Source: Escherichia coli (GTDB lineage Bacteria > Pseudomonadota > Gammaproteobacteria > Enterobacterales > Enterobacteriaceae). Taken from it: 64,000 nucleotides of DNA. The stretch is taken from NCBI RefSeq assembly GCF_024223415.1, contig NZ_CP100500.1; one strand, given 5' to 3'. The translations under genes were made by a program, and so were the position numbers. This document shows positions 1-33,935 of this stretch, one piece after another. How positions within the stretch are numbered: the first letter of the stretch is position 1; each line of letters starts with the position of its first letter. Under the pieces are notes generated by a model, which saw only the letters and a list, made by a program, of their open reading frames with translations, ran no database searches and was not told the DNA's origin.

Positions 1-825
1 GACCAGAGATATCCAGTGCACAGCGGGCAAGGCATTCGTCCATCGGCAGCACAAAACCAAAGCGGCAAATACCGCGTTTGTCGCCGAGGGCGATTTTTAA
101 CGCTTCGCCCAGCGCCAGGCCGGTATCTTCGACGGTGTGGTGATCGTCGATATAGAGGTCGCCTTTGACGTTGATTTCCATGCGGAAACCGCCGTGGGTG
201 GCGATCTGATCCAGCATATGATCAAAGAAGCCAACGCCGGTGTTAATCTTGCTGCCACCTTCGCGATCCAGCCACACCTGGACGTCAATTTGCGTCTCTT
301 TGGTGTTGCGCACTACATGGGCGTAACGGTCTCGTTTAGTGAGCTGCTCGCCAATCATTGGCCAGTTCAGGGTTTCGCGGTCATAGCGTAAACCATTAAT
401 GCCCATGTTTTCCGCCAGCTGAATATCGGTCGCGCGATCGCCAATCACATAACTATTGGCACGATCCATCGCTTGCTCAGCGAGATAACGCTCCACCAGT
501 TTTACTTTCGGCTTACGGCAGTCGCACTCATCGGCGGGCAGGTGCGGACAAATCAGCACTTCATCAAACTGCACGCCTTGCGAGGTGAAGAACTGCATCA
601 TCAGGTTGTGCGGGCCATCAAAATCCGCCTGCGGGAAACTTTGTGTTCCCAGACCATCCTGATTAGTGATCATCACCAGCTTGTAGCCCGCTTTTTGCAG
701 CTTCAGCAGCTCCGGGATCACGCCTGGTTCAAAGGCGAGTTTGTCAAAACGGTCCACCTGAAAATCACTCGGCGGTTCGCTAATCAGGGTTCCATCGCGA
801 TCGATAAAAAGATACTTCTGACTCA

Positions 826-826
<1 letters not shown>
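1..826 (-). CDS. hisB: Histidine biosynthesis bifunctional protein HisB, N-terminal ~275 codons; 3' end lies beyond the window start
   Basis: Minus-strand translation from ATG at 826-824 reads [19 protein letters not shown]...; window start translates ...[27 protein letters not shown] overlap with hisC stop. Confidence 0.9.
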
Positions 827-3197
<2,371 letters not shown>

Positions 3198-3202
3198 GGC
3201 GA

Positions 3203-4102
3203 TCACTCCATCATTTTCTCAATCGGCAGCACCAGGATTGAACTGGCACCCAGCGCTTTCAGTTTTTCCATCGTTTCCCAGAACAGGGTTTCGCTACTCA
3301 CCATGTGCATCGCTACGCGCTGTTGATCACCCGCCAGCGGTAGAATAGTTGGGCGTTCGGCACCTGGCAGCAGGGCGATGACTTCATCCAGGCGTTCGGT
3401 CGGTGCGTGCATCATGATGTATTTTGATTCGCGCGCCTGGATCACACCCTGAATACGGGTCAGCAGTTTGTCGATCAGCTGCTGTTTGGATTCTTCCATT
3501 TCGCCATCGCGTTGTATCAGGCAAGCTTTCGAGCGGTAGATAACTTCGACTTCGCGCAGGCCGTTTGCTTCCAGCGTGGCACCGGTGGAAACCAGATCGC
3601 AAATCGCATCCGCCAGTCCGGCGCGCGGGGCGACTTCAACAGAACCGTTCAGTAAGCAGGATTTAAAAGAGATGCCTTTCTGGTCGAGATAACGCTTGAG
3701 CAGGTGAGGATAAGAGGTGGCGATACGTTTACCGTTTAAGGAGAGCGGGCCGTCCCAGGCTTCATCAACCGGCGTTGCCAGCGAAAGACGGCAGCCGCCG
3801 AAATCCAGACGACGCAGGGTAAAGTAGCGTGGATCTTCACCCTGGGCGCGGCGGTTAAGCAGTTCTTCTTCCAGCACGTTTTCGCCGATAATCCCAAGGT
3901 CTACCACGCCGTCCATTACCAGACCGGGAATGTCGTCGTCACGCACGCGCAGAATATCAATCGGCATGTTTTCTGCCATCGCGATCAGGCGCTGGGTGTG
4001 AAGATTGATTTTAATGCCACAGCGCGCCAGTAATTCGCGTGAGTCATCACTTAAACGGCCGGATTTCTGCATAGCTATGCGTAAACGAGTGTTGTCTGTC
4101 AT
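3203..4102 (-). CDS. hisG: ATP phosphoribosyltransferase
   Basis: ORF 3203..4141; 299-aa product if started at [15 protein letters not shown] (4102). Confidence 0.93.
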
Positions 4103-4148
4103 TTTCTTATTCCTCTTTAAACCTGTCTGAACCGTTATCAATCGCGCA

Positions 4149-4184
4149 ATAAAAAAGCCCCCGGAAGGTGATCTTCCGGGGGCT
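4149..4184 (-). terminator. his attenuator terminator (GC-rich hairpin plus U-run) between hisL and hisG
   Basis: Plus strand aaaaaagcccccggaaggtgatcttccgggggct; on minus strand a 12-bp stem followed by a T-run. Confidence 0.85.
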
Positions 4185-4247
4185 TTCTCATGCGTTCATG
4201 CACCACTGGAAGATCTGAATGTCTTCCAGCACACATCGCCTGAAAGA

Positions 4248-4298
4248 CTAGTCAGGATGATGGTGATGATGGTGGTGTTTAAATTGAACGCGTGTCAT
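4248..4298 (-). CDS. hisL: his operon leader peptide with seven consecutive His codons
   Basis: Minus strand ATGACACGCGTTCAATTTAAACACCACCATCATCACCATCATCCTGACTAG = MTRVQFKHHHHHHHPD. Confidence 0.95.
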   Translation of the reverse strand: MTRVQFKHHHHHHHPD

Positions 4299-4336
4299 AA
4301 AAGTCTCTGTGAATGTTTATTCAACTGATGTCTTTT

Positions 4337-4366
4337 AACCTAAACCACTTTCACGTTAGAAAGCAA
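4337..4366 (-). promoter_or_regulatory. his operon primary promoter (-35 TTGCTT, -10 TAGGTT)
   Basis: Minus strand reads gcccTTGCTTtctaacgtgaaagtggttTAGGTTaaaag upstream of hisL. Confidence 0.7.
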
Positions 4367-4547
4367 GGGCTTTTTTATATATTTTATGGCAATGGATTTG
4401 TTTAATGAATGAGCGGGGAAAGGAGGGGGCTAAGAGGACTGTCCTCTAACCTGACGGCACCAAAAATAGCGAAGCCTGGATTTTCGTCTCACTGACAATA
4501 TCTTGATCTACAAACTAATTAATAAATAGTTAATTAACGCCCATCAT

Positions 4548-4565
4548 TGTACAATGAGCTGTACA
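4548..4565 (+). promoter_or_regulatory. Palindromic operator with two TGTACA hexamers in the yefM-yoeB promoter
   Basis: tgtacaatgagctgtaca about 15 bp upstream of yefM ATG; SD gaggag follows. Confidence 0.6.
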
Positions 4566-4580
4566 TAAGAGGAGATTGAT

Positions 4581-4832
4581 ATGCGTACAATTAGCTACAG
4601 CGAAGCGCGTCAGAATTTGTCGGCAACAATGATGAAAGCCGTTGAAGATCATGCCCCGATCCTTATTACTCGTCAGAATGGAGAGGCTTGTGTTCTGATG
4701 TCACTCGAAGAATACAACTCGCTGGAAGAGACGGCTTATCTACTGCGCTCCCCCGCTAACGCCCGGAGATTGATGGACTCAATCGATAGCCTGAAATCTG
4801 GCAAAGGAACGGAAAAGGACATCATTGAGTGA
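4581..4832 (+). CDS. yefM: Antitoxin YefM
   Basis: 83-aa [53 protein letters not shown]...; 4-nt overlap with yoeB. Confidence 0.93.
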
Positions 4833-5083
4833 AACTAATCTGGTCTGAGGAATCATGGGACGATTATCTGTACTGGCAGGAAACAGATAAGCGAATTGTT
4901 AAAAAGATCAATGAACTTATCAAAGATACCCGCAGAACGCCATTTGAAGGTAAGGGGAAGCCAGAACCCCTGAAACATAATTTGTCAGGTTTCTGGTCCC
5001 GACGCATTACAGAGGAGCACCGTCTGGTATACGCGGTTACCGACGATTCACTGCTCATTGCAGCATGTCGTTATCATTATTGA
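4829..5083 (+). CDS. yoeB: mRNA interferase toxin YoeB
   Basis: 84-aa ORF ending ...[26 protein letters not shown]; coupled to yefM. Confidence 0.93.
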
Positions 5084-5165
5084 ACAGATTCATTCATAGA
5101 ATGAATTGTCAGTTTTGATACGCTAGCGTAGCCTTATAGATCTAAGGTGTATCAGGAGATAACGG

Positions 5166-5990
5166 ATGAAAAAGGTCGCAATTGTCGGGTTAGGGTGGTT
5201 AGGCATGCCGCTGGCGATGTCACTTTCAGCGCGAGGCTGGCAAGTCACCGGGAGTAAAACCACACAAGATGGTGTCGAAGCGGCCCGAATGAGTGGCATT
5301 GATAGCTATCTGCTTCGCATGGAGCCTGAGTTAGTTTGCGATTCTGACGATCTGGATGCCCTGATGGATGCCGACGCGCTGGTCATTACGCTTCCGGCAC
5401 GTCGTAGCGGCCCCGGCGATGAGTTCTATTTACAAGCGGTACAAGAGTTAGTGGATAGCGCGCTGGCCCATCGTATTCCCCGCATTATTTTTACCAGCTC
5501 AACGTCTGTCTATGGCGACGCGCAAGGCACGGTGAAAGAAACCACCCCGCGTAATCCGGTAACCAACAGTGGACGAGTATTAGAAGAACTCGAAGACTGG
5601 CTGCACAATTTACCCGGTACTTCGGTCGATATTCTGCGTCTTGCGGGGCTGGTCGGACCGGGACGTCATCCCGGACGCTTCTTTGCCGGAAAAACCGCGC
5701 CTGATGGTGAACATGGTGTTAATTTAGTCCATTTAGAAGATGTTATTGGCGCTATCACTCTGTTGTTACAGGCACCTAAAGGCGGACACATCTATAATAT
5801 ATGTGCGCCAGCTCACCCTGCGCGTAATGTTTTCTATCCGCAGATGGCCCGTTTACTGGGGCTGGAACCTCCGCAGTTCAGAAATAGTCTGGACAGCGGC
5901 AAAGGTAAGATTATTGATGGCAGTCGGATTTGTAATGAACTGGGATTTGAATACCAGTATCCCGATCCGCTGGTAATGCCGCTGGAGTAA
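5166..5990 (+). CDS. yeeZ: NAD-dependent epimerase/dehydratase-family protein
   Basis: 274-aa ORF with N-terminal Rossmann motif VAIVGLGWLGMPLA; synteny. Confidence 0.8.
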   Translation: MKKVAIVGLGWLGMPLAMSLSARGWQVTGSKTTQDGVEAARMSGIDSYLLRMEPELVCDSDDLDALMDADALVITLPARRSGPGDEFYLQAVQELVDSALAHRIPRIIFTSSTSVYGDAQGTVKETTPRNPVTNSGRVLEELEDWLHNLPGTSVDILRLAGLVGPGRHPGRFFAGKTAPDGEHGVNLVHLEDVIGAITLLLQAPKGGHIYNICAPAHPARNVFYPQMARLLGLEPPQFRNSLDSGKGKIIDGSRICNELGFEYQYPDPLVMPLE

Positions 5991-6035
5991 ACGATCACGC
6001 CAGCAGGACGCCGCATACACTGCAAGGGGGCGTGT

Positions 6036-6965
6036 ATGAAACCACTGCTGGATGTGTTGATGATCCTCGATGCCTTAGAAAAAGAAGGTAGTTTTGCGGC
6101 GGCGTCGGCCAAACTCTATAAGACGCCGTCCGCTCTGAGTTACACCGTTCACAAGCTGGAAAGCGACCTTAATATTCAATTGCTTGATCGTAGCGGTCAC
6201 CGCGCTAAATTCACCCGTACCGGAAAAATGTTATTAGAGAAAGGGCGGGAAGTTCTGCATACCGTGCGGGAACTGGAAAAGCAGGCGATCAAACTGCATG
6301 AAGGCTGGGAAAACGAGCTGGTGATTGGCGTGGACGACACGTTTCCTTTTTCTCTGCTTGCGCCACTGATTGAAGCTTTTTATCAACATCATAGCGTGAC
6401 GCGCCTGAAGTTTATCAATGGCGTACTCGGTGGTTCCTGGGATGCCCTGACTCAGGGGCGAGCGGATATTATTGTTGGCGCGATGCATGAGCCACCATCT
6501 TCCAGTGAGTTTGGTTTTTCACGGTTGGGCGATCTGGAACAAGTCTTTGCGGTCGCGCCTCATCATCCGTTAGCCCTGGAAGAAGAGCCGTTAAATCGTC
6601 GTATTATTAAGCGATATCGGGCGATTGTGGTGGGGGATACTGCGCAGGCAGGCGCTTCTACGGCCTCACAACTTCTCGACGAACAAGAAGCCATTACCGT
6701 TTTCGATTTTAAAACCAAGCTGGAGCTGCAAATTAGCGGCCTCGGCTGCGGCTATTTACCCCGTTATCTGGCGCAACGTTTTCTCGATAGTGGCGCGTTA
6801 ATCGAGAAGAAAGTGGTCGCCCAAACTCTCTTTGAACCCGTCTGGATTGGCTGGAACGAACAGACCGCAGGGCTTGCCAGCGGCTGGTGGCGAGATGAAA
6901 TTTTAGCAAATAGTGCGATCGCCGGTGTTTATGCAAAATCTGATGACGGAAAATCAGCCATTTAA
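6036..6965 (+). CDS. yeeY: LysR-family transcriptional regulator
   Basis: 309-aa ORF; N-terminal HTH then LysR substrate-binding region; synteny. Confidence 0.8.
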   Translation: MKPLLDVLMILDALEKEGSFAAASAKLYKTPSALSYTVHKLESDLNIQLLDRSGHRAKFTRTGKMLLEKGREVLHTVRELEKQAIKLHEGWENELVIGVDDTFPFSLLAPLIEAFYQHHSVTRLKFINGVLGGSWDALTQGRADIIVGAMHEPPSSSEFGFSRLGDLEQVFAVAPHHPLALEEEPLNRRIIKRYRAIVVGDTAQAGASTASQLLDEQEAITVFDFKTKLELQISGLGCGYLPRYLAQRFLDSGALIEKKVVAQTLFEPVWIGWNEQTAGLASGWWRDEILANSAIAGVYAKSDDGKSAI

Positions 6966-7231
6966 AGAAAAATTATTATGGCAAGCCTCTCATTCTCTTG
7001 TCATTTCCCCCCCATTTAGGCACAATGCGCCGCTGTCAAAAAATGACTAAAAACCGACGTTTCATCAGCGTCGGTTATTTTTTGCTTCAAACCAATCATT
7101 CATACCAAGAGGCCGGGCTTCGTACCGGATAGATATTTACTAAAAATCGACAGTTGTTGTCGCTGAGGAATCCAAAAAAATGGGGCAATTTTTTGCTTAC
7201 GCGACGGTTATCACCGTAAAGGAGAATGACC

Positions 7232-8590
7232 ATGTCGCATAACGTTACTCCAAACACCTCTCGCGTGGAATTGCGTAAAACGCTTACGTTAGTTCCGGTT
7301 GTAATGATGGGTCTTGCCTATATGCAGCCGATGACGCTGTTTGATACTTTTGGTATCGTTTCAGGCCTCACGGATGGTCATGTGCCGACAGCCTATGCGT
7401 TCGCATTGATTGCGATCCTGTTTACGGCTCTGAGCTACGGGAAGCTGGTTCGCCGCTATCCTTCTGCTGGCTCTGCATACACTTACGCCCAGAAATCCAT
7501 TAGCCCGACTGTCGGCTTTATGGTGGGTTGGTCTTCTCTGCTCGACTATCTGTTCGCGCCGATGATCAACATTCTGCTGGCGAAAATTTATTTTGAAGCT
7601 CTGGTGCCTTCCATCCCATCGTGGATGTTTGTGGTGGCGCTGGTGGCCTTTATGACCGCCTTTAACCTGCGTAGTCTGAAATCTGTAGCGAACTTCAACA
7701 CTGTAATCGTCGTGTTGCAGGTAGTGCTGATCGCGGTGATTCTGGGCATGGTTGTTTATGGCGTATTTGAAGGTGAAGGCGCTGGTACGCTGGCGAGCAC
7801 TCGTCCGTTCTGGTCTGGCGATGCGCATGTTATCCCGATGATTACCGGGGCGACAATCCTGTGCTTCTCCTTTACCGGCTTTGACGGCATCAGCAACCTG
7901 TCGGAAGAAACCAAAGATGCAGAGCGCGTGATCCCGCGTGCGATTTTCCTGACCGCGCTGATCGGCGGCATGATCTTCATCTTTGCAACTTACTTCCTGC
8001 AGCTGTACTTCCCGGATATCTCTCGCTTTAAAGATCCGGATGCGTCACAGCCTGAAATCATGCTGTACGTTGCGGGTAAAGCGTTCCAGGTTGGCGCGCT
8101 GATCTTCTCCACCATTACCGTACTGGCGTCTGGTATGGCGGCGCACGCAGGTGTTGCGCGTCTGATGTACGTAATGGGTCGTGACGGCGTGTTCCCGAAA
8201 AGCTTCTTCGGTTATGTTCACCCGAAATGGCGTACTCCGGCGATGAACATCATCCTGGTTGGCGCGATTGCCCTGCTGGCAATCAACTTCGACCTGGTAA
8301 TGGCAACGGCGCTGATTAACTTTGGTGCGCTGGTGGCGTTCACCTTTGTTAACCTGTCGGTCATCTCGCAGTTCTGGATCCGTGAGAAGCGTAATAAGAC
8401 GCTGAAAGATCACTTCCAGTATCTGTTCCTGCCGATGTGTGGTGCGCTGACCGTTGGTGCGCTGTGGGTTAATCTGGAAGAAAGCTCAATGGTTCTGGGT
8501 CTGATCTGGGCTGCTATCGGTCTGATTTACCTGGCTTGCGTCACCAAGAGCTTCCGTAACCCGGTTCCGCAGTACGAAGACGTAGCATAA
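7232..8590 (+). CDS. plaP: Putrescine importer (APC-family amino acid/polyamine permease)
   Basis: ORF 7226..8590; SD aaggag positioned for ATG 7232 ([10 protein letters not shown]...), giving 452 aa; multi-TM. Confidence 0.88.
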
Positions 8591-8608
8591 TCATCTTTTC
8601 TAATAATC

Positions 8609-8647
8609 AACCGGAGTCGAATGAACAGTTGGCTCCGGTTTTTTTAT
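8609..8647 (+). terminator. Rho-independent terminator after plaP
   Basis: aaccggagtcgaatgaacagttggctccggttttttt. Confidence 0.8.
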
Positions 8648-8768
8648 TCTTTTTTATCGACATCCTCATTAATAACCATTTGTTCTAATTTAGAGAATTT
8701 GGTTATTGGTCTGCATTCCACCAGTCATGAATAATTTCCCTATTAACATTCATCTGGTTAATTAATTT

Positions 8769-9729
8769 ATGTTTTCAATGATATTAAGCGGGCTAATTTG
8801 TGGTGCTCTGCTGGGATTTGTCATGCAGCGTGGGGGTTTTTGCGTTAATTCAGGCGGGCCTACTGACTTACGAAGCCGGGGCGTTCCCGTGGCTTGGTAC
8901 TGTTATAGGTGGGTATATCTTCGGGCTGGGAATTGTTCTGGCGGGTGGATGTGCCACCGGGACCTGGTATCGCGCGGGTGAGGGATTGATCGGCAGTTGG
9001 ATCGCGCTTTTCACTTATATGGTGATGAGTGCGGTGATGCGTTCTCCACACGCCAGTGGTTTAAATCAAACCTTGCAGCACTACACTACTGAACATAACT
9101 CTATTGCTGATACTTTTAATTTGTCTGTGTGGCCGTTGGTTGCCGTTTTGCTGGTGATAACGCTCTGGGTGGTGATGAAAGAGTTGAAGAAGCCAAAACT
9201 GAAAGTCGCGACCTTACCGCCGCGCCGAACCGGGATCGCTCATATTCTGTTTGAAAAACGCTGGCATCCCTTTGTCACTGCTGTACTCATCGGTTTGATT
9301 GCGCTTTTAGCCTGGCCCCTGAGTGAAGCAACCGGACGCATGTTTGGGTTAGGAATCACTTCCCCAACGGCCAATATTCTGCAATTTCTGGTCGCGGGTG
9401 ACGTGAAATACATTAACTGGGGCGTTTTCCTGGTGTTAGGGATCTTCGTGGGGTCATTTATTGCAGCCAAAGCGAGCCGTGAGTTCCGCGTTCGCGCAGC
9501 TGATGCACAAACAACAGTACGTAGCGGGTTAGGTGGTGTACTGATGGGCTTCGGTGCCAGTATTGCAGGTGGTTGCTCTATCGGTAATGGACTGGTTATG
9601 ACTGCAATGATGACCTGGCAGGGCTGGGTTGGCCTTGTATTTATGATTCTCGGAGTCTGGACTGCGTCCTGGCTTGTGTATGTTCGACCGCAGCGTAAGG
9701 CGCGACTGGCAACTGCTGCGGCAAATTAA
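8769..9729 (+). pseudogene. yeeE: YeeE/YedE-family thiosulfate transporter (TsuA) reading frame split by a frameshift or internal deletion
   Basis: ORF 8769..8981 (MFSMILSGLICGALLGFVMQRGGFC...) and ORF 8800..9729 are in different frames; downstream frame carries two GGC(A/S)xG repeat motifs; 961-nt span is not a multiple of 3. Confidence 0.6.
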
Positions 9730-9742
9730 GTAAGGTGTAAAG

Positions 9743-9970
9743 ATGGCGATTAAAAAGCTGGATGTGGTGACGCAGGTCTGTCCGTTTCCACTCATAGAAG
9801 CAAAAGCAGCACTGGCAGAAATGGCCAGCGGCGATAAGTTGGTAATTGAGTTTGATTGCACCCAGGCAACTGAAGCAATCCCACAGTGGGCGGCAGAAGA
9901 AGGACATGCCATCACCGATTATCAGCAGATTGGCGATGCTGCGTGGAGCATCACCGTTCAAAAAGCCTGA
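9743..9970 (+). CDS. yeeD: TusA-like sulfur carrier protein
   Basis: 75-aa ORF with CPFP motif (VCPFPLIEAKAA); follows yeeE. Confidence 0.85.
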   Translation: MAIKKLDVVTQVCPFPLIEAKAALAEMASGDKLVIEFDCTQATEAIPQWAAEEGHAITDYQQIGDAAWSITVQKA

Positions 9971-9981
9971 CCCAACATTGT

Positions 9982-10005
9982 CCTCCGCCGTATCAGCGGC
10001 GGAGG
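9982..10005. terminator. Bidirectional hairpin between convergent yeeD and sbcB
   Basis: cctccgccgtatcagcggcggagg, 8-9 bp GC stem. Confidence 0.6.
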
Positions 10006-10012
10006 CTTCAAA

Positions 10013-11440
10013 CTAGACGATCTCTTCCGCGTACTGCCAAAGCGCTTTTAACAGCGCCACTTTTTCTTTATCGTCGGCATACTGCTGCGCCAGCATCTGA
10101 ATCTCTTCTGCATAGCCTTGTAAAAACTCGGGTGTGAATACCTGGCGGCGGTGCTCCAGCCAACGTTGCTGCTCGGCATAATCCAGCGTCCCCGGGAAGT
10201 TGCGTGCCCGATAATTGAACAACAGCTTTTCAATCCGTTTATCAACAAAAGTGATATCCAGTGCCGGTAAATTACGCGGCTCGGTTTCCAGCACAATTTT
10301 CATTGCTGCACGATCGGCGTCACTGAAAAAGCCGTTATAAAGCTGTGCATCCACGTTATCTGAAGGCGTAAACGGTTCGGCTTCCGCGAATATCGCCACC
10401 ACTTTTTCACGCACTTGCGGATTTTCACGCAGAATTTTTAGGTTATCGAGGCAATGCTGACGATTAATTCCCAGTCGGTCGGCATCTTCCGGGCGTAGCG
10501 TATTCGCCTGGGCCAGTACCGGACATTTATTGATGTGCACCAGCTTAACCGGAACGGCGGCGTTATCGCCAAGATCGGCTTTTGCGGTATATAAACGCTC
10601 GCGCAATGTGTCGCTATCCAGCTCCAGTAATGGCGAAATGTCTCCTGCCAAATCCACCATAATTACGGCATTGCGATTTTCAGGATGCCACGCCAGCGGT
10701 GCCACCCAGCTGGTATTGCCACGCCATGCCCCAAACATTCCGGAAACGTGAACCAGGGGTTTCATCTGCGGAACATCAATCAACGCCATCAGTTTGTGTT
10801 TATTACGATGGGTAAAGAGATAATCAAACAGACGTGGCTGACGCGTTTTTACCAGTTTCGCCATCGCAATAGTGGCGTACACATCAGCCATCGCATCGTG
10901 GGCGTTGCTATGTTCAATACCATTCGCTTTGGTTAAATGCTCAAGGCGAAAGCTCGGTAGACCGTCATCATTTTCAGGCCAGTTTATTCCTTCCGGGCGC
11001 AGGGCATAACAGGCACGCATAACATCCAGTAAATCCCAGCGCGAGTTATCATGCTGCCAGCTCCAGGCGTAAGGATCGTAGAAATTACGATAAAAAACGT
11101 TGCGTGTGACTTCGTCGTCGAAACGCACATTGTTGTAGCCCAGAATACAGGTCTTCGGTACGGTAAAAAGCGAGTGAATACGGGCGGCAAACGTGGCTTC
11201 GTTTTCTCCTTTCGCCCGTGCTTCCTGCGGGGTAATACCGGTAATTAATACTGCTCCAGGCTGGGGTAAATAGTCATCCGCGGGCTTGCAGTAAAAGACT
11301 TCGGGTTCGCCGATGACATTGAATTCGTTATCAGTGCGAATGGCTGCGAACTGTGCAGGGCGATCTAACGCGGGGTGCGTTCCAAAGGTTTCGTAATCGT
11401 GAAACAAAAAGGTAGATTGTTGCTTACCGTCATTCATCAT
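10013..11440 (-). CDS. sbcB: Exodeoxyribonuclease I
   Basis: ORF 10013..11512; product starts MMNDGKQQSTFLFHDYETFG at 11440, giving 475 aa. Confidence 0.93.
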   Translation of the reverse strand: MMNDGKQQSTFLFHDYETFGTHPALDRPAQFAAIRTDNEFNVIGEPEVFYCKPADDYLPQPGAVLITGITPQEARAKGENEATFAARIHSLFTVPKTCILGYNNVRFDDEVTRNVFYRNFYDPYAWSWQHDNSRWDLLDVMRACYALRPEGINWPENDDGLPSFRLEHLTKANGIEHSNAHDAMADVYATIAMAKLVKTRQPRLFDYLFTHRNKHKLMALIDVPQMKPLVHVSGMFGAWRGNTSWVAPLAWHPENRNAVIMVDLAGDISPLLELDSDTLRERLYTAKADLGDNAAVPVKLVHINKCPVLAQANTLRPEDADRLGINRQHCLDNLKILRENPQVREKVVAIFAEAEPFTPSDNVDAQLYNGFFSDADRAAMKIVLETEPRNLPALDITFVDKRIEKLLFNYRARNFPGTLDYAEQQRWLEHRRQVFTPEFLQGYAEEIQMLAQQYADDKEKVALLKALWQYAEEIV

Positions 11441-11642
11441 TAGGTTAAATCCGTTATTTCTGCTGTCTGCCAGAGTATCAAATATCACCGTGCTAATCAG
11501 CTTTAGCGCCACAATTTGGCAGCGAGTGGCAACAGATCATGTCAGATAAAAATGAGAGGGTAGTCACATTTTCTTGCACTTTATTCCAGCCAGTTCATAA
11601 GTATTTCCGTAAAAAGAACAGCTATTTGAAACTCCTGAGGGT

Positions 11643-12815
11643 TTGCTGTTGAAACGCCGTCTTATTATTGCTGCTTCTTTGTTCGTTTTTAACTTATCGT
11701 CTGGTTTTGCGGCGGAAAACATTCCTTTTTCACCTCAGCCTCCAGAGATTCATGCCGGGTCCTGGGTATTGATGGATTACACCACCGGTCAGATCCTCAC
11801 CGCGGTTAATGAGCATCAACAGCGCAATCCCGCCAGCCTGACAAAGCTGATGACGGGTTATGTCGTGGATCGCGCTATCGATAGTCATCGCATTACGCCA
11901 GACGATATTGTCACCGTGGGGCGCAATGCGTGGGCGAAAGATAATCCGGTGTTTGTCGGTTCTTCACTGATGTTTTTGAAAGAGGGCGATCGCGTATCGG
12001 TACGTGATTTAAGCCGTGGTTTAATTGTGGATTCCGGAAATGACGCTTGTGTTGCTCTGGCTGACTATATTGCCGGTGGGCAACGGCAGTTTGTTGAAAT
12101 GATGAACAACTATGCCGAGAAGCTGCATCTCAAGGATACGCATTTTGAAACAGTGCATGGTCTGGATGCACCTGGCCAGCATAGCTCGGCTTATGATTTA
12201 GCTGTGCTTTCTCGCGCTATCATCCACGGCGAGCCCGAGTTTTATCATATGTACAGTGAGAAAAGTCTCACCTGGAACGGTATCACCCAGCAAAACCGTA
12301 ACGGGTTGTTGTGGGATAAAACCATGAATGTTGACGGCCTGAAAACGGGTCATACTTCTGGTGCCGGGTTTAATCTCATTGCTTCGGCTGTAGATGGGCA
12401 GCGTCGTCTCATTGCAGTGGTAATGGGGGCTGACAGTGCAAAAGGTCGTGAGGAAGAGGCAAGAAAATTACTGCGTTGGGGGCAACAAAACTTTACTACG
12501 GTGCAAATTTTGCACCGTGGGAAAAAGGTCGGAACGGAACGCATCTGGTATGGCGATAAAGAAAATATCGACCTGGGAACGGAACAAGAGTTCTGGATGG
12601 TGCTACCGAAAGCCGAAATTCCACATATCAAAGCCAAATATACCCTTAATGGTAAAGAGCTCACCGCGCCAATTAGCGCCCATCAGCGGGTAGGGGAAAT
12701 TGAACTTTACGACCGTGATAAACAGGTGGCGCACTGGCCGCTGGTTACCCTGGAATCTGTCGGGGAAGGCAGCATGTTTTCTCGCCTGAGTGATTATTTC
12801 CACCATAAGGCCTGA
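11643..12815 (+). CDS. dacD: D-alanyl-D-alanine carboxypeptidase (PBP6b)
   Basis: About 390-aa ORF with signal peptide, SxxK motif (ASLTKLM), SGN motif (DSGNDA) and KTG motif (LKTGHT); probable TTG start. Confidence 0.9.
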   Translation: MLLKRRLIIAASLFVFNLSSGFAAENIPFSPQPPEIHAGSWVLMDYTTGQILTAVNEHQQRNPASLTKLMTGYVVDRAIDSHRITPDDIVTVGRNAWAKDNPVFVGSSLMFLKEGDRVSVRDLSRGLIVDSGNDACVALADYIAGGQRQFVEMMNNYAEKLHLKDTHFETVHGLDAPGQHSSAYDLAVLSRAIIHGEPEFYHMYSEKSLTWNGITQQNRNGLLWDKTMNVDGLKTGHTSGAGFNLIASAVDGQRRLIAVVMGADSAKGREEEARKLLRWGQQNFTTVQILHRGKKVGTERIWYGDKENIDLGTEQEFWMVLPKAEIPHIKAKYTLNGKELTAPISAHQRVGEIELYDRDKQVAHWPLVTLESVGEGSMFSRLSDYFHHKA

Positions 12816-12901
12816 CCTTTCTTTTGCAGCAGACTGGCAGGAGTGCGAGTCTGCTCGCATAATCAACACTCATTCCTTGTGGTTTTAATATTGCAACTAT
12901 A

Positions 12902-12917
12902 CTGTATATAAAAACAG
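12902..12917 (+). promoter_or_regulatory. LexA (SOS) box upstream of sbmC
   Basis: CTGTATATAAAAACAG matches CTGT-N8-ACAG, 17 bp upstream of sbmC ATG. Confidence 0.85.
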
Positions 12918-12933
12918 TAATAATGGAGGCGTC

Positions 12934-13407
12934 ATGAACTACGAGATTAAGCAGGAAGATAAACGTACCGTTGCAGGTTTCCATCTCGTTGGCCCGTGGG
13001 AACAGACGGTAAAGAAAGGTTTTGAGCAGTTGATGATGTGGGTAGATAGCAAAAATATTGTGCCGAAGGAGTGGGTTGCTGTCTATTACGACAATCCGGA
13101 TGAAACACCCGCCGAAAAATTACGCTGCGACACCGTCGTGACGGTACCGAATAACTTTACGCTCCCCGAAAACAGTGAGGGCGTCATTCTGACAGAAATT
13201 TCAGGTGGTCAATATGCGGTGGCGGTGGCTCGTGTAGTCGGTGATGATTTTGCTAAACCCTGGTATCAGTTCTTTAATAGCCTCTTGCAGGACAGTGCTT
13301 ATGAAATGTTACCAAAGCCCTGCTTCGAGGTTTACTTGAACAATGGCGCGGAAGATGGGTACTGGGATATCGAAATGTATGTTGCGGTGCAGCCAAAACA
13401 TCACTAA
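12934..13407 (+). CDS. sbmC: DNA gyrase inhibitor SbmC (GyrI)
   Basis: 157-aa [27 protein letters not shown]... Confidence 0.92.
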
Positions 13408-13604
13408 TTCATCTCAGGGCGGTGTGTTGACGCGAAGACCACTCTTTTTTTGAAAACGAAAAGAGTAAGATGCGCCTTTCAATTTTTTCGCTCCTGCCGG
13501 GAAATTACACTGTTCCCGGTTTGTCCGTCGGATAATTCAGAGGCGCGCCTTCTGGCCGACAGATGAGTTATGAGCGCTTTTAATCTTCATTACGGAGTTT
13601 CTGC

Positions 13605-14663
13605 GTGCGTGCCGATAAGTCATTAAGCCCGTTTGAAATCCGGGTATACCGCCATTACCGCATTGTGCATGGTACTCGGGTCGCGCTGGCATTCCTGCTC
13701 ACTTTTCTCATTATCCGCCTGTTTACTATCCCGGAAAGCACCTGGCCGCTGGTCACCATGGTGGTGATTATGGGGCCAATCTCGTTCTGGGGGAACGTTG
13801 TCCCTCGCGCATTCGAACGTATTGGCGGTACGGTGTTGGGGTCGATTTTAGGTCTTATCGCTCTGCAACTGGAGTTAATCTCGTTACCGCTGATGTTAGT
13901 CTGGTGCGCGGCGGCTATGTTTCTTTGCGGTTGGCTGGCGCTGGGCAAGAAACCGTATCAAGGTTTATTGATTGGGGTGACGCTGGCAATTGTTGTTGGT
14001 TCCCCGACAGGTGAAATTAATACGGCGTTATGGCGAAGCGGCGATGTGATCCTCGGCTCTTTACTGGCAATGTTGTTTACCGGTATCTGGCCACAACGGG
14101 CGTTCATCCACTGGCGCATTCAACTGGCGAAAAGTCTGACCGAGTATAATCGGGTCTATCAATCTGCATTCTCACCGAACTTACTCGAACGCCCACGTCT
14201 GGAAAGCCATCTACAAAAACTCCTGACCGATGCCGTGAAAATGCGTGGGCTGATTGCGCCCGCCAGCAAAGAAACCCGTATTCCAAAATCGATATATGAA
14301 GGTATCCAGACCATTAACCGCAATCTGGTTTGTATGCTGGAGTTGCAAATCAATGCGTACTGGGCCACGCGCCCCAGCCATTTCGTGTTATTGAGCGCGC
14401 AAAAACTTCGTGATACCCAGCACATGATGCAGCAAATACTGCTGAGCCTTGTTCATGCGCTGTACGAAGGTAATCCGCAGCCGGTTTTTGCCAATACGGA
14501 AAAATTGAACGATGCTGTGGAAGAGCTGCGTCAGTTGCTCAATAACCACCATGACCTGAAGGTAGTGGAAACACCAATCTATGGTTATGTGTGGCTGAAC
14601 ATGGAAACGGCGCATCAGCTTGAGTTGCTATCGAATCTGATTTGCCGGGCCTTGCGCAAATAA
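13605..14663 (+). CDS. yeeA: Inner membrane protein YeeA (FUSC-like)
   Basis: 352-aa ORF with several hydrophobic helices; synteny. Confidence 0.85.
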   Translation: MRADKSLSPFEIRVYRHYRIVHGTRVALAFLLTFLIIRLFTIPESTWPLVTMVVIMGPISFWGNVVPRAFERIGGTVLGSILGLIALQLELISLPLMLVWCAAAMFLCGWLALGKKPYQGLLIGVTLAIVVGSPTGEINTALWRSGDVILGSLLAMLFTGIWPQRAFIHWRIQLAKSLTEYNRVYQSAFSPNLLERPRLESHLQKLLTDAVKMRGLIAPASKETRIPKSIYEGIQTINRNLVCMLELQINAYWATRPSHFVLLSAQKLRDTQHMMQQILLSLVHALYEGNPQPVFANTEKLNDAVEELRQLLNNHHDLKVVETPIYGYVWLNMETAHQLELLSNLICRALRK

Positions 14664-14834
14664 TTCCTGAACTTCAGAATCATCTTGCTGCTGCTTCGAT
14701 TCAGCAAGGATAAAGGGTATGATAGTGAAAAGGGATAAAAGCATTGTCATCTGCGGCAGCTATGAGTAATGTTGGCCCTAACGAATAGCGGTTGCTTAAA
14801 CGAATCCGACTCTCACATTATCAGGGGTATAAAA

Positions 14835-15164
14835 ATGGAAACTACCAAGCCTTCATTCCAGGACGTACTGGAATTTGTTCGTCTGTTCCGTCGTAAGAAC
14901 AAACTGCAACGTGAAATTCAGGACGTTGAGAAAAAGATCCGTGACAACCAGAAGCGCGTCCTGCTGCTGGACAACCTGAGCGATTACATCAAGCCTGGGA
15001 TGAGCGTTGAAGCAATCCAGGGCATCATCGCCAGCATGAAAGGTGACTATGAAGATCGCGTTGACGATTACATCATCAAAAATGCCGAGCTCTCCAAAGA
15101 ACGCCGCGATATCTCCAAAAAGCTGAAAGCTATGGGCGAAATGAAAAACGGCGAAGCGAAGTAA
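14835..15164 (+). CDS. yeeX: DUF496/UPF0265 protein YeeX
   Basis: ORF 14769..15164; 109-aa product from [23 protein letters not shown] (ATG 14835). Confidence 0.9.
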
Positions 15165-15177
15165 TTCCCGTTTTATT

Positions 15178-15204
15178 CAATGAGGGTTGCCCGGCAACCC
15201 TCAT
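15178..15204 (+). terminator. Palindromic terminator after yeeX
   Basis: aatgagggttgcccggcaaccctcatt, perfect 13-bp arms. Confidence 0.7.
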
Positions 15205-15264
15205 TGCTCATTGATTCTTATCTGTGTATCACCGTCATCATTCTCATCTGAGAACCAATCGAAA

Positions 15265-15495
15265 TTAACAACAGCCTTCTTCTGTATGCAGCAAGGCAAA
15301 AAGTTCTGTAACTCCATTGTTATTAACTGCACTGGTTACTAACACGTTGTGCGCTCCAGCTTCCCGTAACCAACTTTTCACCAAAGATATTTGTTCCATG
15401 CTGGCTAAATCTGCTTTGGTTACTACTCCAATGACCGGGTGATTCATGGCCCGGTAGGGCGTTTTTACCTCTAATTCCTGCTTCAGCACTGAGAT
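15265..15495 (-). pseudogene. 3' fragment of an EutP/PduV-like GTPase gene (island-edge remnant)
   Basis: Minus-strand translation ...GISVLKQELEVKTPYRAMNHPVIGVVTKADLASMEQISLVKSWLREAGAHNVLVTSAVNNNGVTELFALL; no N-terminal P-loop region present. Confidence 0.5.
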
Positions 15496-15504
15496 TCCTG
15501 CTTG

Positions 15505-15677
15505 TTGCCGGAAAAGCAGGCACCTGCCGTCTGAACGGTATCGATCCGGAAGCGTATCTGCGCCATATTCTGAGCATACTGCCGGAATGGCCCTCCAACC
15601 GTGTTGACGAACTCCTGCCATGGAACGTAGTTCTCACCAATAAATAAGCGTCAATACGGTGCTCCGTTGACGCTTAC
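15505..15677 (+). mobile_element. IS66-family 3' remnant: last ~45 codons of the transposase plus terminal inverted repeat ending ...CGCTTAC
   Basis: Translates ...LNGIDPEAYLRHILSILPEWPSNRVDELLPWNVVLTNK*, similar to the C-terminus of the intact copy at 29821..31356; inverted partner at 45289. Confidence 0.75.
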
Positions 15678-15877
15678 TTTAATCCGTTTTCTGAGCTTAG
15701 ATTTTTCTGTTCCTACCCAGACCGTGGATTTGGAATTCATTTTTTGTCAGGTCAATGCTAATCGTTAAAACGGCCATAACGCACCTCCACTGGAAGGTTT
15801 ATCAGTAATATCCTACCGTTGCTTCATGGTCGGGGCGTCCATTCCATTATTATCGGTTTTCCTTTCTGTTTATAAAT

Positions 15878-15905
15878 GAAAACGCCAGCTGTATTCAGGC
15901 TGGCG
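15878..15905 (-). terminator. Hairpin downstream of yeeW (possible terminator)
   Basis: cgccagctgtattcaggctggcg with a short A/T run. Confidence 0.4.
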
Positions 15906-16061
15906 TCAGGGGAAATGAAGCCTGTTGAGTGAGATTCACCGGTTCTGGTGCAGAAGCTGCAGATGGCGCAGGGTAAGGACATCTTCTCTTGCCTGCTTAA
16001 TACAGGACAACAGTGCTGTTTCTGTGGTTAATGGCACTATACCCTGCATCACTGCATTGTC

Positions 16062-16256
16062 TTACAGCAACTGGTGAGGGCTGGCATAAGTTGCCGGTGT
16101 TTCGGTAGAGTCACGGTCATCCACCACGCGGAGTGAATAACCTTTTTCAGCGGCCTTATTAATCAGTTCAGTGATATTAACACCATCAATGTCAACGGCA
16201 ATGTGCCCCATATCCAGCGCCTGTACGTTAACGCTGTCGGCTTCCAGTGTCATCAT
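16062..16256 (-). CDS. yeeW: Small prophage protein YeeW
   Basis: 64-aa ORF directly downstream of cbtA; start overlaps cbtA stop. Confidence 0.7.
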   Translation of the reverse strand: MMTLEADSVNVQALDMGHIAVDIDGVNITELINKAAEKGYSLRVVDDRDSTETPATYASPHQLL

Positions 16257-16626
16257 TTCGCCTCCGGATACTTACCCAGGGTAATGTTATTTACCGTTCT
16301 GTAATTGTCGCGGGTCATCAGGCCGGTCGCCCTGCGAGCCCGGAGGATATCGATGCTGTTTATTAACTGAGAGCGGGTACAGGCGCTGAATCCCGGCTGG
16401 TCGGTAGCACCAGCGCGTATTTTTCCACGAGAAAGTTCACCGCATCACACAGTGAAATGCCTGCCTCAATATGCTGCTCAATCACACGTTCATCGGCAAA
16501 AGGTGTGTCATTCAGTGTGAGGCCATAGTGCTGGTCCAGCAGTCGGGACAGCAGTATCTGCCAGATTTCAACAGGAGACGGGCGAGAACTGGTCGCCTGC
16601 CCGGGTAATACAGGTAATGTTTTCAT
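16253..16626 (-). pseudogene. cbtA: CbtA (YeeV) type IV toxin gene with a frameshift after codon ~80
   Basis: ORF 16363..16626 gives [36 protein letters not shown]...EKYALV then [14 protein letters not shown]; the +1 frame continues [50 protein letters not shown]. Confidence 0.8.
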
Positions 16627-16714
16627 ACTGAAGATTTTCCTGATATGCAGATATAAAAATGGAAAAGTGGCGTGGTGAAAACACCAGGCCGTAGCAGAAG
16701 GCTATTCTGGAGAG

Positions 16715-17083
16715 TTAATTTTTCATTTCGGGCGTCGGATAAACAGCCAGATAAACGTAACCACAACTGCTGAGGGTATCGGCTTTGCAGGTCAGCCCTT
16801 TTGCATACAGCGTGACGGTATGCTGATGGCGGGGATTCAGTTCACCGCTGGTGAGCATGAGTTCCAGTTGTTTCATCAGCAGCGGAAAGGCCTGGTCCAG
16901 GTGGTACGCATCTGCATCGCTGAACAGGCCTCTGATACCGGCGCGGTCGGCAAGGTAATGCAACCGGTTACCCTCCTGCACCAGACGTGCCCCGAAACAG
17001 GGCGTCACGGTGCAGGGCAGCCCCCACCAGGGGCGGTCGTGATTGTCGTCGGGAAGTGTTGTCCCGGGGAGTGTGTCTGACAC
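16715..17083 (-). CDS. cbeA: Antitoxin CbeA (YeeU)
   Basis: 122-aa ORF MSDTLPGTTLPDDNHDRPWWGLPCTVTPCFGARLVQEGNRLHYLADRAG... Confidence 0.9.
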   Translation of the reverse strand: MSDTLPGTTLPDDNHDRPWWGLPCTVTPCFGARLVQEGNRLHYLADRAGIRGLFSDADAYHLDQAFPLLMKQLELMLTSGELNPRHQHTVTLYAKGLTCKADTLSSCGYVYLAVYPTPEMKN

Positions 17084-19961: not shown

Positions 19962-20450
19962 TTAGTTAAACGCAGCTACGTAGTTTTTCACCAGATACGC
20001 GAATTCATGCACGCCAATTTCACCGAACCAAACCAGGTAGGCCGGGTCATCTAAACCAAAGTAACGGTAGCCAACAACTTCATGGGTTTTTGGGTTATAG
20101 AGTGTTACGATAAAGTCCCAGCCGCAGGTATTGGCTTTGCAACCGTCGCCCTGGAGCCAGACTGTATCGTTAATGTTTACTGGCGTGATACCTCCACCAG
20201 GGCCATCCATATAGCCGCCTTTACCGAACATGCCGCTCAGTCCGACCGGTTTTAATGCTTTGTCGATAGCGGCTTTGTAGGTAGCGTCACCTTCGTACAA
20301 CTCGTACGTTGATGGACACGCTCCAGGTTGTTCAGCCCAGGCTTCCGGGTTACAACTAAGTGCTTGTTTTACGGTAGCCGCTTCTGCGTTAAAGTTAAAG
20401 CCCGTGAACAGAACCGCCAGAAATAACATAAGGGTATGTAAACGTTTCAT
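19962..20450 (-). CDS. Secreted/periplasmic protein of unknown function
   Basis: Signal peptide MKRLHTLMLFLAVLFTGFNFNAEA with GGAAG SD; ORF track extends in frame to 20753 (263 aa) with a second upstream Met at 20645. Confidence 0.55.
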   Translation of the reverse strand: MKRLHTLMLFLAVLFTGFNFNAEAATVKQALSCNPEAWAEQPGACPSTYELYEGDATYKAAIDKALKPVGLSGMFGKGGYMDGPGGGITPVNINDTVWLQGDGCKANTCGWDFIVTLYNPKTHEVVGYRYFGLDDPAYLVWFGEIGVHEFAYLVKNYVAAFN

Positions 20451-20780
20451 TGTAAATATTCTTCCGTTGTAAATGGCGCTGGAAAATTTCTCATCAGTGA
20501 AACCTTCCGGAAGTTTCCCCCCCTTGTATGATGTATATCGCCAGTATTTTATTTCATCCCGGCTGTAATTTTTATATTCCCCGGCACGTGCAATAACGCT
20601 GACCAGAGATATAAGGCTCATTAATAACTTTACAGGTAATTTCATAATTAAATTTCCAGTGAGTGAATTGACAGGTGAGGGGTAAAACTTTCTCTCAGGT
20701 AATATATATCTGAAAATATTTTCAATAACACCAGACAGGAAAAACACCACCACAGGCGGTGGCGTTTCTTTGGGGCGTCT

Positions 20781-21851
20781 TTATTTAATCCGGGCCATCG
20801 CGTTTCTCAGTGCCAAATCTGCCTCTTCCGTTATATCCAGGCTTTTCTGCAATACCGCCTCTGACCGGGTCAGTGCCTGACGTGCTGCCAAGGGGTTCCG
20901 GATATGCTCCATCGTCAGCATCGTGTCTTCATAGCCCTGCTGACGCCAGATGTCGGTATGTGCCGATGTAAAACTGAGCAGACCGCCACTTTTGCCTTCT
21001 TCCCCTGTGTGTTTCAGCCTTTTCCGGGGACGGATTTCAAGGATTGTGGTGTCCGGAAAAGCCCGGCGATCCCATAAAGAACCGTCACTCAGATGCGTCA
21101 CAATCACCATATTGCATCCGGCATCGACCAGAGGCGTTACAGGGGTATTTCCCTGCATATTTCGCCATCCTCCCATCCCACCATCACCGAACATTGTCCC
21201 CTGAACCTCACGGGGATGGAACAACAGGGGCAGTGCGGCTGACGCAAGCAGAGCCTCTTTCTGCTGTCCGCGGGGCAGACTCTGGATATGCTGAAAAACG
21301 GCGTTTTTCGTGGTTCCGGCACCCAGTTCAGCACGAATGCAGTCAATAATATCCTGCATGCCCCCTTCTGTGGGGTACAGCGACACATACAGCGGTAGCC
21401 CGTCTGCCAGAGCATCAGTATCAAGATAATGATCCATCAGCGCTGTCAGAGGCTCATCTGACAACAGCGGCTGAGCCATCGGATTGTCGAAGCCGTTGAT
21501 TATCGATATATGGCGAAGAAGTATCGTAAGCAGTGCTCCTGCACGTCCGGGGATCTGGCAGAGGTTCATTGCCTGGAACAATTTTTTCAGCAATGAAAAG
21601 TAAACCGATCGGTTTACCGACAGCACCTGATTATTCCCCAGATGATCCCAGAGCGCCTCCAGGCGTACGGCAGCTTCTGACAGATCGGGAGAGGCCGCGA
21701 TAATGGCACCATTGAATGCGCCAATGCTGGCCCCTGAAACCATGCTGATCTGTGTACCACACTCTGCCAGTGCCTTAACCACTCCCGCCTGATAAGCGCC
21801 CACCGCCCCGCCACCGGACAGCACCAGCCCCGTTTTCATTTCTGTACTCAT
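20781..21851 (-). CDS. Patatin-like phospholipase
   Basis: 356 aa; oxyanion-hole motif LSGGGAVGAYQAG, GxSxG nucleophile elbow (GASIGA), DGG motif (FGDGGMGG); ATG overlaps stop of upstream gene. Confidence 0.8.
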   Translation of the reverse strand: MSTEMKTGLVLSGGGAVGAYQAGVVKALAECGTQISMVSGASIGAFNGAIIAASPDLSEAAVRLEALWDHLGNNQVLSVNRSVYFSLLKKLFQAMNLCQIPGRAGALLTILLRHISIINGFDNPMAQPLLSDEPLTALMDHYLDTDALADGLPLYVSLYPTEGGMQDIIDCIRAELGAGTTKNAVFQHIQSLPRGQQKEALLASAALPLLFHPREVQGTMFGDGGMGGWRNMQGNTPVTPLVDAGCNMVIVTHLSDGSLWDRRAFPDTTILEIRPRKRLKHTGEEGKSGGLLSFTSAHTDIWRQQGYEDTMLTMEHIRNPLAARQALTRSEAVLQKSLDITEEADLALRNAMARIK

Positions 21852-22753
21852 GCAGCCCCCTTCTGAAATATTTCATCGACCATACTTTCAGAGAGGCGTT
21901 CTGCAGAGCAGAGGCGAGGCATGCGAACCGGTAAGTGTTCTGCAGCCTGCGTGGTTGACCAGATCACCGGATGCTGCTCTTCACTGCACCAGTCTCCCAG
22001 CCAGTTAATCGCGTCATGCCACTCGTTATCTGCCTGCTCCCGGCCCTGACCACCAAGCCAGTCCAGAGTGTTCAGACGCACGGTTGCACTACCGCCACTC
22101 TCCTGTGCCATCTGCGTTAATGCTTTATGTCTGAGAATATCCAGTAGCTGGTTAACCTGGCCTGTTTCGCTCTGACGTATCACATCACCAAACGCGCCCC
22201 AGCGAAGCTCTTCAAGTGCCACATAACAACGTCCGGCAGGGGAAAATGACGCATATCGCCCGGCGCTCCACCATGAGAATATCTGCTCAAGATGTAACTG
22301 CGCCCGCTGAACCTGGTCAACACGGTGGAGTTTTTCTTCAAGATGATTCAGTTTATGGTGAACCTGATCGGCCAGGGTGAGTAACTGCTCCCGCGTATCT
22401 GCGGAATAATGCGCCAGCCTGGCTGTATCACTGACCAGTGAACTGACCCTGTCGTTTACCCGGGTAATCGCGTAGTTTGTGGTGGCAAGTGACGTTGTCA
22501 TCTCCGTCAGCCAGCGCAGGGACGCCTCAACGCCCTGTGCAAGCGACGCATTGATGGCATTCTGCCGTGCAGCGCCTTCGCCGGTCAGCCCCTCTTTTAA
22601 ACGCCGGAAGAACGTGCGCTCTCCGGCCGTGCGGATATGCTCCTGTGCAACATCGATTCCGTTTGCGAAATCAACCACAAATTTTTCAGGAAGACAGGTG
22701 AGTACCTGACATACCCGGTTATCAGCAATTTGTTGAATAAATGGTGAAGTCAC
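21848..22753 (-). CDS. Hypothetical 301-aa helical protein, middle gene of the GTPase-patatin operon
   Basis: No P-loop; likely GTG start overlapping the GTPase stop (GTGA) and stop overlapping patatin start (ATGA). Confidence 0.6.
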   Translation of the reverse strand: MTSPFIQQIADNRVCQVLTCLPEKFVVDFANGIDVAQEHIRTAGERTFFRRLKEGLTGEGAARQNAINASLAQGVEASLRWLTEMTTSLATTNYAITRVNDRVSSLVSDTARLAHYSADTREQLLTLADQVHHKLNHLEEKLHRVDQVQRAQLHLEQIFSWWSAGRYASFSPAGRCYVALEELRWGAFGDVIRQSETGQVNQLLDILRHKALTQMAQESGGSATVRLNTLDWLGGQGREQADNEWHDAINWLGDWCSEEQHPVIWSTTQAAEHLPVRMPRLCSAERLSESMVDEIFQKGAA

Positions 22754-31356: not shown

Positions 31357-31999
31357 CCAGCTTCACTTCGTCAATACGGTTCTCACTGCACGCTTACCAT
31401 TCTCTGCCAGGCATATGTCGATGTAATCCATAAACGATTTCAGCTTACCCCTTTTGTGGCCAGTCTTTCTGGCTGGCGGTTCAGGGGATGTTTTCTGGTT
31501 ATCGTGTACCACAAAGCAGGGATATTGCCCCGATAGTCACATTTCAGATTGATCGCGGTCTGAAGATGTGGCACTGAGGTAACGTGCTGGTGTCACTGGT
31601 ATTGCTGAAGTTATGGTTTTTCGGGGTCAGGTGAGCCTGTTGTGTGTATGCTTTTTGTTCAGGTCAGAGGGGGACTGTGTGGACAGCGGCTTTTGTCTCC
31701 GGGCATTCACGCCTGAACGATGAATGCGATTTTCAGCAATATTTGTCTTTGTGACACTCTCTGGTTGAGAAGCTAATGCGCGCCCCTGTTTCCACAGAGA
31801 ATGAGGCTTGCCATCAGCCGAAACATCAGTATTCCACGCCATACAGACGGCGCCTGACCATGTGCTGATGCAGGTAAAATGTTTCACTACAACTGTTCGG
31901 GTTGCTATGCAACGAAACAGCGATTCTCACGATCTTTAACTGCAACGTTTTTCCGCCTGAAAGTAAGCGTACAGCGAGGGCCGTATTGACGGGGATGTG

Positions 32000-33538: not shown

Positions 33539-33587
33539 AAGCCCGTATTTTACCGGGCTTATTCTGTGACAACCAGGATAAAGAGAT

Positions 33588-33935
33588 TTACAGCATGGTC
33601 AGGGAGGTCAGCAGCCGCTTAGGCTGTCGCCAGTCGATACCTTCCAGCAGCATCGCCAGCTGCGCCTGTGTAAGGAACACTTTGCCATCACGGGCTGACG
33701 GCCAGGCGAAGCGCCCACGCTCCAGCCGTTTGGTCAGGAGGCACAGTCCGTCACCGGTGGACCACAGCAGTTTAACCTGACTGCCGCTGCGGCCCCGGAA
33801 AATGAAAACATGGCCGGACATGGGATCGTCTTTCAGCGCCGTCTGTACTTTCGCAGCCAGGCCGTTGAAGCCATTTCTCATATCGGTGATACCGGCAACC
33901 AGCCAAATTTTGGTCCCGGAAGGTAAAGGGATCAT
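33588..33935 (-). CDS. IS66-family TnpB (second copy)
   Basis: 115-aa ORF nearly identical to 29424..29771. Confidence 0.85.

Follow-up and report, generated by a model that had tools for sequence, protein, structure and literature searches.

The window, i.e. the whole stretch of 64,000 nucleotides of Escherichia coli DNA analyzed here, contains the genes plaP, tsuA (yeeE), tsuB (yeeD) and sbcB in this order, with sbcB lying downstream on the opposite strand. This is the orthologous position of intact TsuA/YeeE (K-12 b2013; NF041049; homologue structures PDB 6LEO, 8J4C and 8K1R): locus and synteny are the same, and the window matches the E. coli tsuA region with 97–100% nucleotide identity. 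Judged by its sequence, a terminator-like hairpin behind plaP separates tsuA and tsuB as a putative transcription unit of their own. A sigma-70 promoter scan of positions 8560 to 10060 returned no site, and is uninformative with regard to a tsuA promoter or an internal tsuB promoter. The features of the locus and of its wider surroundings are collected in Table 1.

Table 1. Features of the tsuA-tsuB locus and of the remaining window (positions refer to the window).
Feature	Position	Strand	Basis
His operon leader	4149-4272	-	Rfam gathering-score match
sRNA STnc240, just upstream of yoeI/plaP	7011-7085	+	Rfam gathering-score match
Terminator-like hairpin and T-run after plaP, 12-pair stem then TTTTTATTCT	8609..8640	+	Sequence scan
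tsuA (yeeE) pseudogene, 961 nt vs 1059 nt intact	8769..9729	+	ORFs, alignment, PGAP on identical allele
Native-start truncated frame: 22 native and 48 out-of-frame residues, then TGA stop	8769..8981	+	ORF table
Deletion junction: lone hybrid 17-nt direct repeat AGCGTGGGGGTTTTTGC	8827..8843	+	Alignment, repeat analysis
Residual tsuA coding sequence, residues 56-352, +1 frame vs start codon	8836..9729	+	ORF table, alignment
tsuB (yeeD), intact 75-aa sulfurtransferase partner	9743..9970	+	NF041048, 161.9 bits vs 147.5 cutoff
cbtA, frameshifted	~16253-16626	-	Annotation of Combat11I9
Dynamin-family protein (798 aa), RdcB-family diguanylate cyclase regulator, patatin-like phospholipase	~19962-25146	-	Annotation of Combat11I9
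Three tRNA genes, identical scores, around cbl, nac and yeeO	50663-50735; 53072-53144; 54893-54965	-; -; +	Rfam; tRNA-Asn in Combat11I9
yeeJ, annotated as frameshifted with internal stop, cut by window end	~60972-63941	-	Annotation of Combat11I9

The tsuA lesion and its intact partner tsuB

The first-pass annotation had described tsuA as disrupted near its N-terminus, with the transporter divided between two frames, and this description stands. The ORF table contains a 70-residue frame (frame 1) opening with the ATG at 8769 and closing with the stop at 8981, and a 309-residue frame from 8800 to 9729, which is shifted by +1 and encodes the bulk of the YeeE-type transporter. The span of 961 nt was read correctly, and the estimate of roughly 98 missing nucleotides, which had been made from a protein length of about 352 residues, turned out to be exact (1059 − 961 = 98). 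The alignment to intact alleles that had been suggested as a check reveals a single clean gap of 98 nt with zero other indels (GDSC2227PM and ATCC 8739 served as intact alleles), and with it a +1 change of frame. The deleted stretch comprises nucleotides 59–156 of the gene, where the identity of the ends over 8 nt permits any placement up to nucleotides 67–164.

Only residues 1–22 (MFSMILSGLICGALLGFVMQRG), covering most of helix H1, are retained as native N-terminus. The frame changes after Gly22, the 33 residues 23–55 (RFCLTGGFRDMYIAKNNRMFYALLIAISVQSVG) including Cys25 and Arg31 are lost, and residue 56 onward resumes at position 8836. Of the N-terminal string initially assigned to the transporter, residues 1–22 are indeed native, while its terminal “GFC” is the second copy of a repeat read out of frame and mimics the native “RFC”. 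The codons of Cys94 and Cys302 survive, exclusively in the downstream frame. The 894 nt downstream of the junction are not decayed: they contain zero stops and differ from intact alleles by 4–5 ordinary allelic substitutions.

Outside the deletion the window allele shares about 99% nucleotide identity with intact E. coli tsuA, and residues 1–22 and 56–352 remain recognizable. Unlike intact TsuA/YeeE it lacks nucleotides 59–156 and is frameshifted, and neither of its frames attains the curated score. As functional members of the TsuA family we regarded full-length matches to NCBIfam model NF041049 with at least 645 bits (curated cutoff). An intact tsuA allele obtains 710.2 bits, while the 309-residue frame covers model positions 52–348 with 593.7 bits and the 70-residue frame only positions 1–28 with 37.2 bits. 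A continuous frame of approximately 352 codons is missing, for the frame of the start codon is terminated after 70 codons, and no single polypeptide unites C25, C94 and C302, since C25 belongs to the deleted residues. The tsuA gene of the window is an ordinary dead gene, i.e. a pseudogene, and not a functional member of the family.

The gene tsuB is intact, as had been noted at first pass. It begins 14 nt past the tsuA stop and possesses its own Shine-Dalgarno sequence (AAGGTG). Cys13 of the CPFP motif and Cys39 are both present (VCPFP, FDC), which, together with the NF041048 score above the cutoff, makes the product a member of the TsuB family, and the single difference from TsuB of other alleles, E32K, is common to strain ET474.

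Direct repeats, hairpin and the origin of the deletion

In the intact gene two direct repeats of 17 nt, AGCGTGGGCGTTTTTGC and AGCGTGGGGGTTTTTGC, are identical in 16 of 17 positions and start exactly 98 bp apart (positions 3228–3244 and 3326–3342 of the intact allele L003). The length of the deletion equals this spacing, both endpoints fall inside the repeats, and one hybrid copy is left in the window. The two copies meet at an exact microhomology of 8 nt, AGCGTGGG (8827–8834). As the hybrid repeat keeps the variant base of copy 2, a G at 8835, the join must lie within these eight nucleotides.

The segment between the repeats of the intact allele contains a perfect inverted repeat of 12 bp with a 2-nt loop, TTTTCGCGATAT-gt-ATATCGCGAAAA. 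The resulting hairpin dominates the predicted fold of the single-stranded DNA and is contained in both the MFE and the centroid structure. Such a structure-forming sequence is a facilitating, non-obligatory attribute of deletions between direct repeats. Both repeats and their flanks are nearly invariant in E. coli, with at least 3,422 genomes matching a 90-nt probe at 99% or more.

The classical signature of slipped misalignment is a deletion that ends in direct repeats, is as long as these are spaced and spans a palindrome, and the tsuA deletion shows all three. From this architecture we conclude that the 98-bp deletion most likely arose by slipped-strand misalignment: during replication, mispairing between the imperfect 17-nt repeats would remove 98 bp, and the perfect 12-bp hairpin between them would help the misalignment. 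Mutations of this kind are very well known. Albertini and co-workers reportedly described spontaneous deletions with endpoints in short direct repeats in lacI in 1982, and assays of tandem-repeat deletion are said to have been developed in the Lovett laboratory. The tsuA deletion resembles these cases in its short direct-repeat endpoints (8 nt exact, 16/17 overall), the retained hybrid copy and the palindrome in between; unlike them it is a natural allele of wild isolates and not a mutant selected in the laboratory. A 1-bp deletion of the type present in ET474 was considered as a precursor and rejected, because the junction in the window keeps five G residues and not four.

Carriers and history of the allele

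We compared positions 8600 to 10000 of the window with 5,426 complete E. coli genomes by megablast, and 4,202 of these contain the region. It is matched in one piece in a handful, and in two pieces, with approximately 98 additional bases, in the other genomes listed. A probe of 90 nt placed across the deletion is covered to at least 80% by 4,138 records, and five of the 5,426 genomes match it in one piece with 100% identity. Beyond these five, every match listed consists of two pieces spanning 98 nt more. The carriers are Combat11I9 (human urine, Hong Kong), 181.1 (turkey, Canada), 1916D18 (swine, China), GDSC2239PM (vegetable, China) and 2017.17.01CC (human, Viet Nam), and PGAP labels tsuA as “frameshifted” in all of them, so that the allele is already present in public RefSeq annotation as a frameshifted pseudogene. 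The exact 309-residue frame occurs on 89 public contigs. An exact look-up of the 70-residue out-of-frame product returned no entry, probably because the longer frame is the one preferred by gene callers, and is uninformative on prevalence. The literature was searched for pseudogenes of yeeE in E. coli with no relevant result, and no paper describing the 98-bp allele was found.

Combat11I9 differs from the window by 3 SNPs over 16,090 nt (792 to 16881), and 181.1 by 6 SNPs over 16 kb. From approximately position 8171 through tsuA, GDSC2239PM and 1916D18 share the exact sequence of the window, but they diverge strongly in the his genes, a pattern that fits recombination around a shared haplotype block. 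2017.17.01CC, in contrast to the window, agrees with the intact allele of ATCC 8739 at all 32 sites that distinguish ATCC 8739 from the window across 1.8 kb, and the nearest of the discriminating sites are 8630 and 8979. This type of deletion allele is rare and was found on 2 contigs. The haplotype of the window itself matches ET474 except at two sites, with zero differences in the rest of tsuA.

That an identical junction is present on two tsuA haplotypes argues for at least two independent occurrences, as the repeat architecture would predict. We therefore consider it the parsimonious reading of the sequence comparison that the deletion probably arose at least twice. One must keep in mind a single origin, in which a very short tract of homologous recombination would have carried the deletion into the haplotype of 2017.17.01CC, which is of the ATCC 8739 type. 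The chromosomal region recombines often, as the shared tsuA haplotype and the differing his regions of GDSC2239PM and 1916D18 illustrate, and the 196 bp left and 144 bp right of the junction contain no discriminating SNP. With 32 of 32 sites being of the ATCC 8739 type, however, only a conversion tract of less than about 348 bp would fit, and recurrence is mechanistically expected where repeats and hairpin are present in at least 3,400 genomes; we regard the single origin as unlikely. Far less probable still is that the deletion reflects a sequencing or assembly artefact and that the isolate really has an intact tsuA. Repeats and a hairpin could in principle cause a local mis-assembly, and ET474, the closest relative of intact length, differs at the same repeat by 1 bp in a homopolymer, possibly through a sequencing error. 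Against this stand the atypical nature of a clean 98-bp deletion for read errors, the identical junction in five complete genomes made independently in different laboratories from different hosts and countries, and the 89 contigs with the corresponding frame. The occurrence in complete genomes and on contigs excludes an artefact for practical purposes.

The comparison with the carriers also yielded observations outside the tsuA locus. Up to about 31.9 kb the window and Combat11I9 are nearly identical; colinearity then ends at an IS66-type region (31963–34401, 83% inverted match), and from 34401 to 64000 the identity amounts to only 98.86%. This break points to a boundary made by recombination or by an IS element, and to a different strain. 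In the CP4-44-like island by tmaR/yeeW (approximately 16.9–47 kb) the annotation of Combat11I9 lists more pseudogenes, namely a frameshifted cbtA, a frameshifted GTPase, a DMT transporter with an internal stop, and IS fragments. Of these, only the frameshifted status of cbtA can safely be carried over to the window, because the stretch concerned aligns without gaps. The island genes for the dynamin-family protein, the RdcB-family regulator and the patatin-like phospholipase could possibly form an accessory or defence-type module. In two other carriers of the deletion, dacD contains an internal stop in 1916D18 (L006, 10858–12024) and is replaced by a prophage integrase directly after sbcB in GDSC2239PM (L007, 10828–12006).

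Consequences of the lesion and loss of the locus in E. coli

YeeE is built from 13 helices with the central loops LA to LD, and loop LA contains the equivalent of C22 (Tanaka et al. 2020, PMC7449682). The same study reports that C25, C94 and C302 of E. coli YeeE are essential and cannot be substituted even by serine. In our alignment residue 25 of E. coli TsuA corresponds to Cys22 of the S. thermophila YeeE structure PDB 6LEO, and Arg31 to St-Arg28. St-C22 and St-R28 are located at the interface between YeeE and YeeD, beside the active-site cysteine of YeeD, and uptake mediated by YeeE requires YeeD (Ikei et al. 2024, PMC11073785). With the essential Cys25 and the counterpart of a YeeD-contacting residue both deleted, the allele would be null whatever the frame, and the frameshift on top of the deletion makes the loss of TsuA complete. 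Taken as a whole, we hold it to be highly probable that tsuA lost its function through a 98-bp repeat-mediated deletion, most likely a slipped misalignment helped by the hairpin. Translation from the native start would end after 70 residues at 8981 and would give no functional TsuA.

Two further readings would leave an active protein. A programmed ribosomal frameshift or a functional split gene could draw on the overlap of the two frames between 8800 and 8981, which a +1 shift would join, and on the runs of five G and five T at the junction. The first-pass annotation had named such frameshifting, next to a continuous frame in the reference, as what would overturn its reading. The frame is continuous only in alleles bearing the additional 98 nt, and no shift of the ribosome could recover 33 codons that are physically missing, compared with about 4,190 genomes containing the full region: any joined product would be devoid of residues 23–55 and hence of Cys25. 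As the two-frame state is moreover restricted to five of the 5,426 genomes and is not a conserved organization, programmed frameshifting was rejected, and we assign it practically no probability. An N-terminally truncated TsuA (approximately residues 56–352, or from Met117), made from an internal start and retaining partial transport or another function with TsuB, is scarcely more credible. It could be favored by the undecayed downstream sequence with its Cys94 and Cys302 and by the finding that the C22A variant of StYeeE retained its ability to complement in one assay (PMC7449682). The corresponding cysteine of the E. coli protein is, however, indispensable, and the loss of helix H1, loop LA, H2 and most of H3 breaks topology and pseudo-symmetry. 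In addition, no Shine-Dalgarno-like sequence was found before the in-frame starts at 8800–8830 or 9019–9037. That the downstream sequence has not decayed reflects a young allele and not retained function, the remainder of tsuA being the same as in ET474.

Returning to loss of TsuA function as the preferred reading, the lesion would have little effect on the cell. Thiosulfate uptake would continue via CysPUWA, which is encoded outside the window, and the lesion would be silent and near-neutral. Deletion of yeeE is known to alter growth on thiosulfate only if cysPUWA is deleted as well (PMC7449682), so that no phenotype is expected in the presence of CysPUWA, and a functional CysPUWA system would probably keep the lesion silent. 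The roughly 760 untranslated nucleotides upstream of tsuB may lower its expression by polarity, and TsuB would have no transporter partner in this strain.

The window is not the only example of a missing TsuA. The flanks plaP and sbcB match 5,424 of the 5,426 complete genomes and the tsuA-tsuB operon 4,195; approximately 1,229 (about 23%) keep plaP and sbcB without tsuA-tsuB in between, the interval corresponding to 8591–10012 of the window. The genomes without the operon have a short spacer between plaP and sbcB; in AH21F008 it measures only 73 bp and has a hairpin of its own, and in the O25:H4 strain 18044 it contains an IS200C element. Insertions of IS1A interrupt tsuA in 2022CK-00450 and AR144.2 and represent a third independent route to the loss of tsuA. 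ET474 has a 1-bp deletion in repeat copy 2 that shortens five G residues to four (L002, approximately 3326–3336, equivalent to 8832 of the window) and is annotated as frameshifted; this could be a genuine lesion in its own right or an error of sequencing in a homopolymer. All of these alleles have the same outcome, namely no TsuA, whereas the window differs from them in that a small internal deletion has left both tsuB and the remainder of tsuA unaltered. The absence of the operon from about 23% of the genomes together with the IS1 insertions elsewhere indicates that tsuA-tsuB is dispensable in E. coli.

One might speculate that the repeat-hairpin-repeat arrangement in codons 20–60 of tsuA is a recurrent hot spot exploited by selection, the losses being adaptive because uptake by TsuA is costly in some niches, e.g. 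through import of toxic oxyanions or an excess of reduced sulfur. The 98-bp deletion (at least twice), the IS1 insertions, the 1-bp deletion and the absence of the operon from about 23% of the genomes would in that case reflect adaptation instead of neutral decay. We consider this improbable.

Our analysis adds to the known annotation the repeat-hairpin-repeat anatomy, the probable recurrence of the deletion and the finding that E. coli can do without the locus. The strain is best recorded as tsuA-negative with an orphan tsuB, and beyond correct annotation this is of little importance. For deletions associated with repeats and a hairpin the allele provides a clear example from nature, and a seemingly recurrent one, and since the junction seems to recur it is a marker prone to homoplasy and unfit as the sole basis of lineage typing. 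The observation that tsuA-tsuB is dispensable and often lost is relevant to models of sulfur assimilation and to strains for cysteine production.
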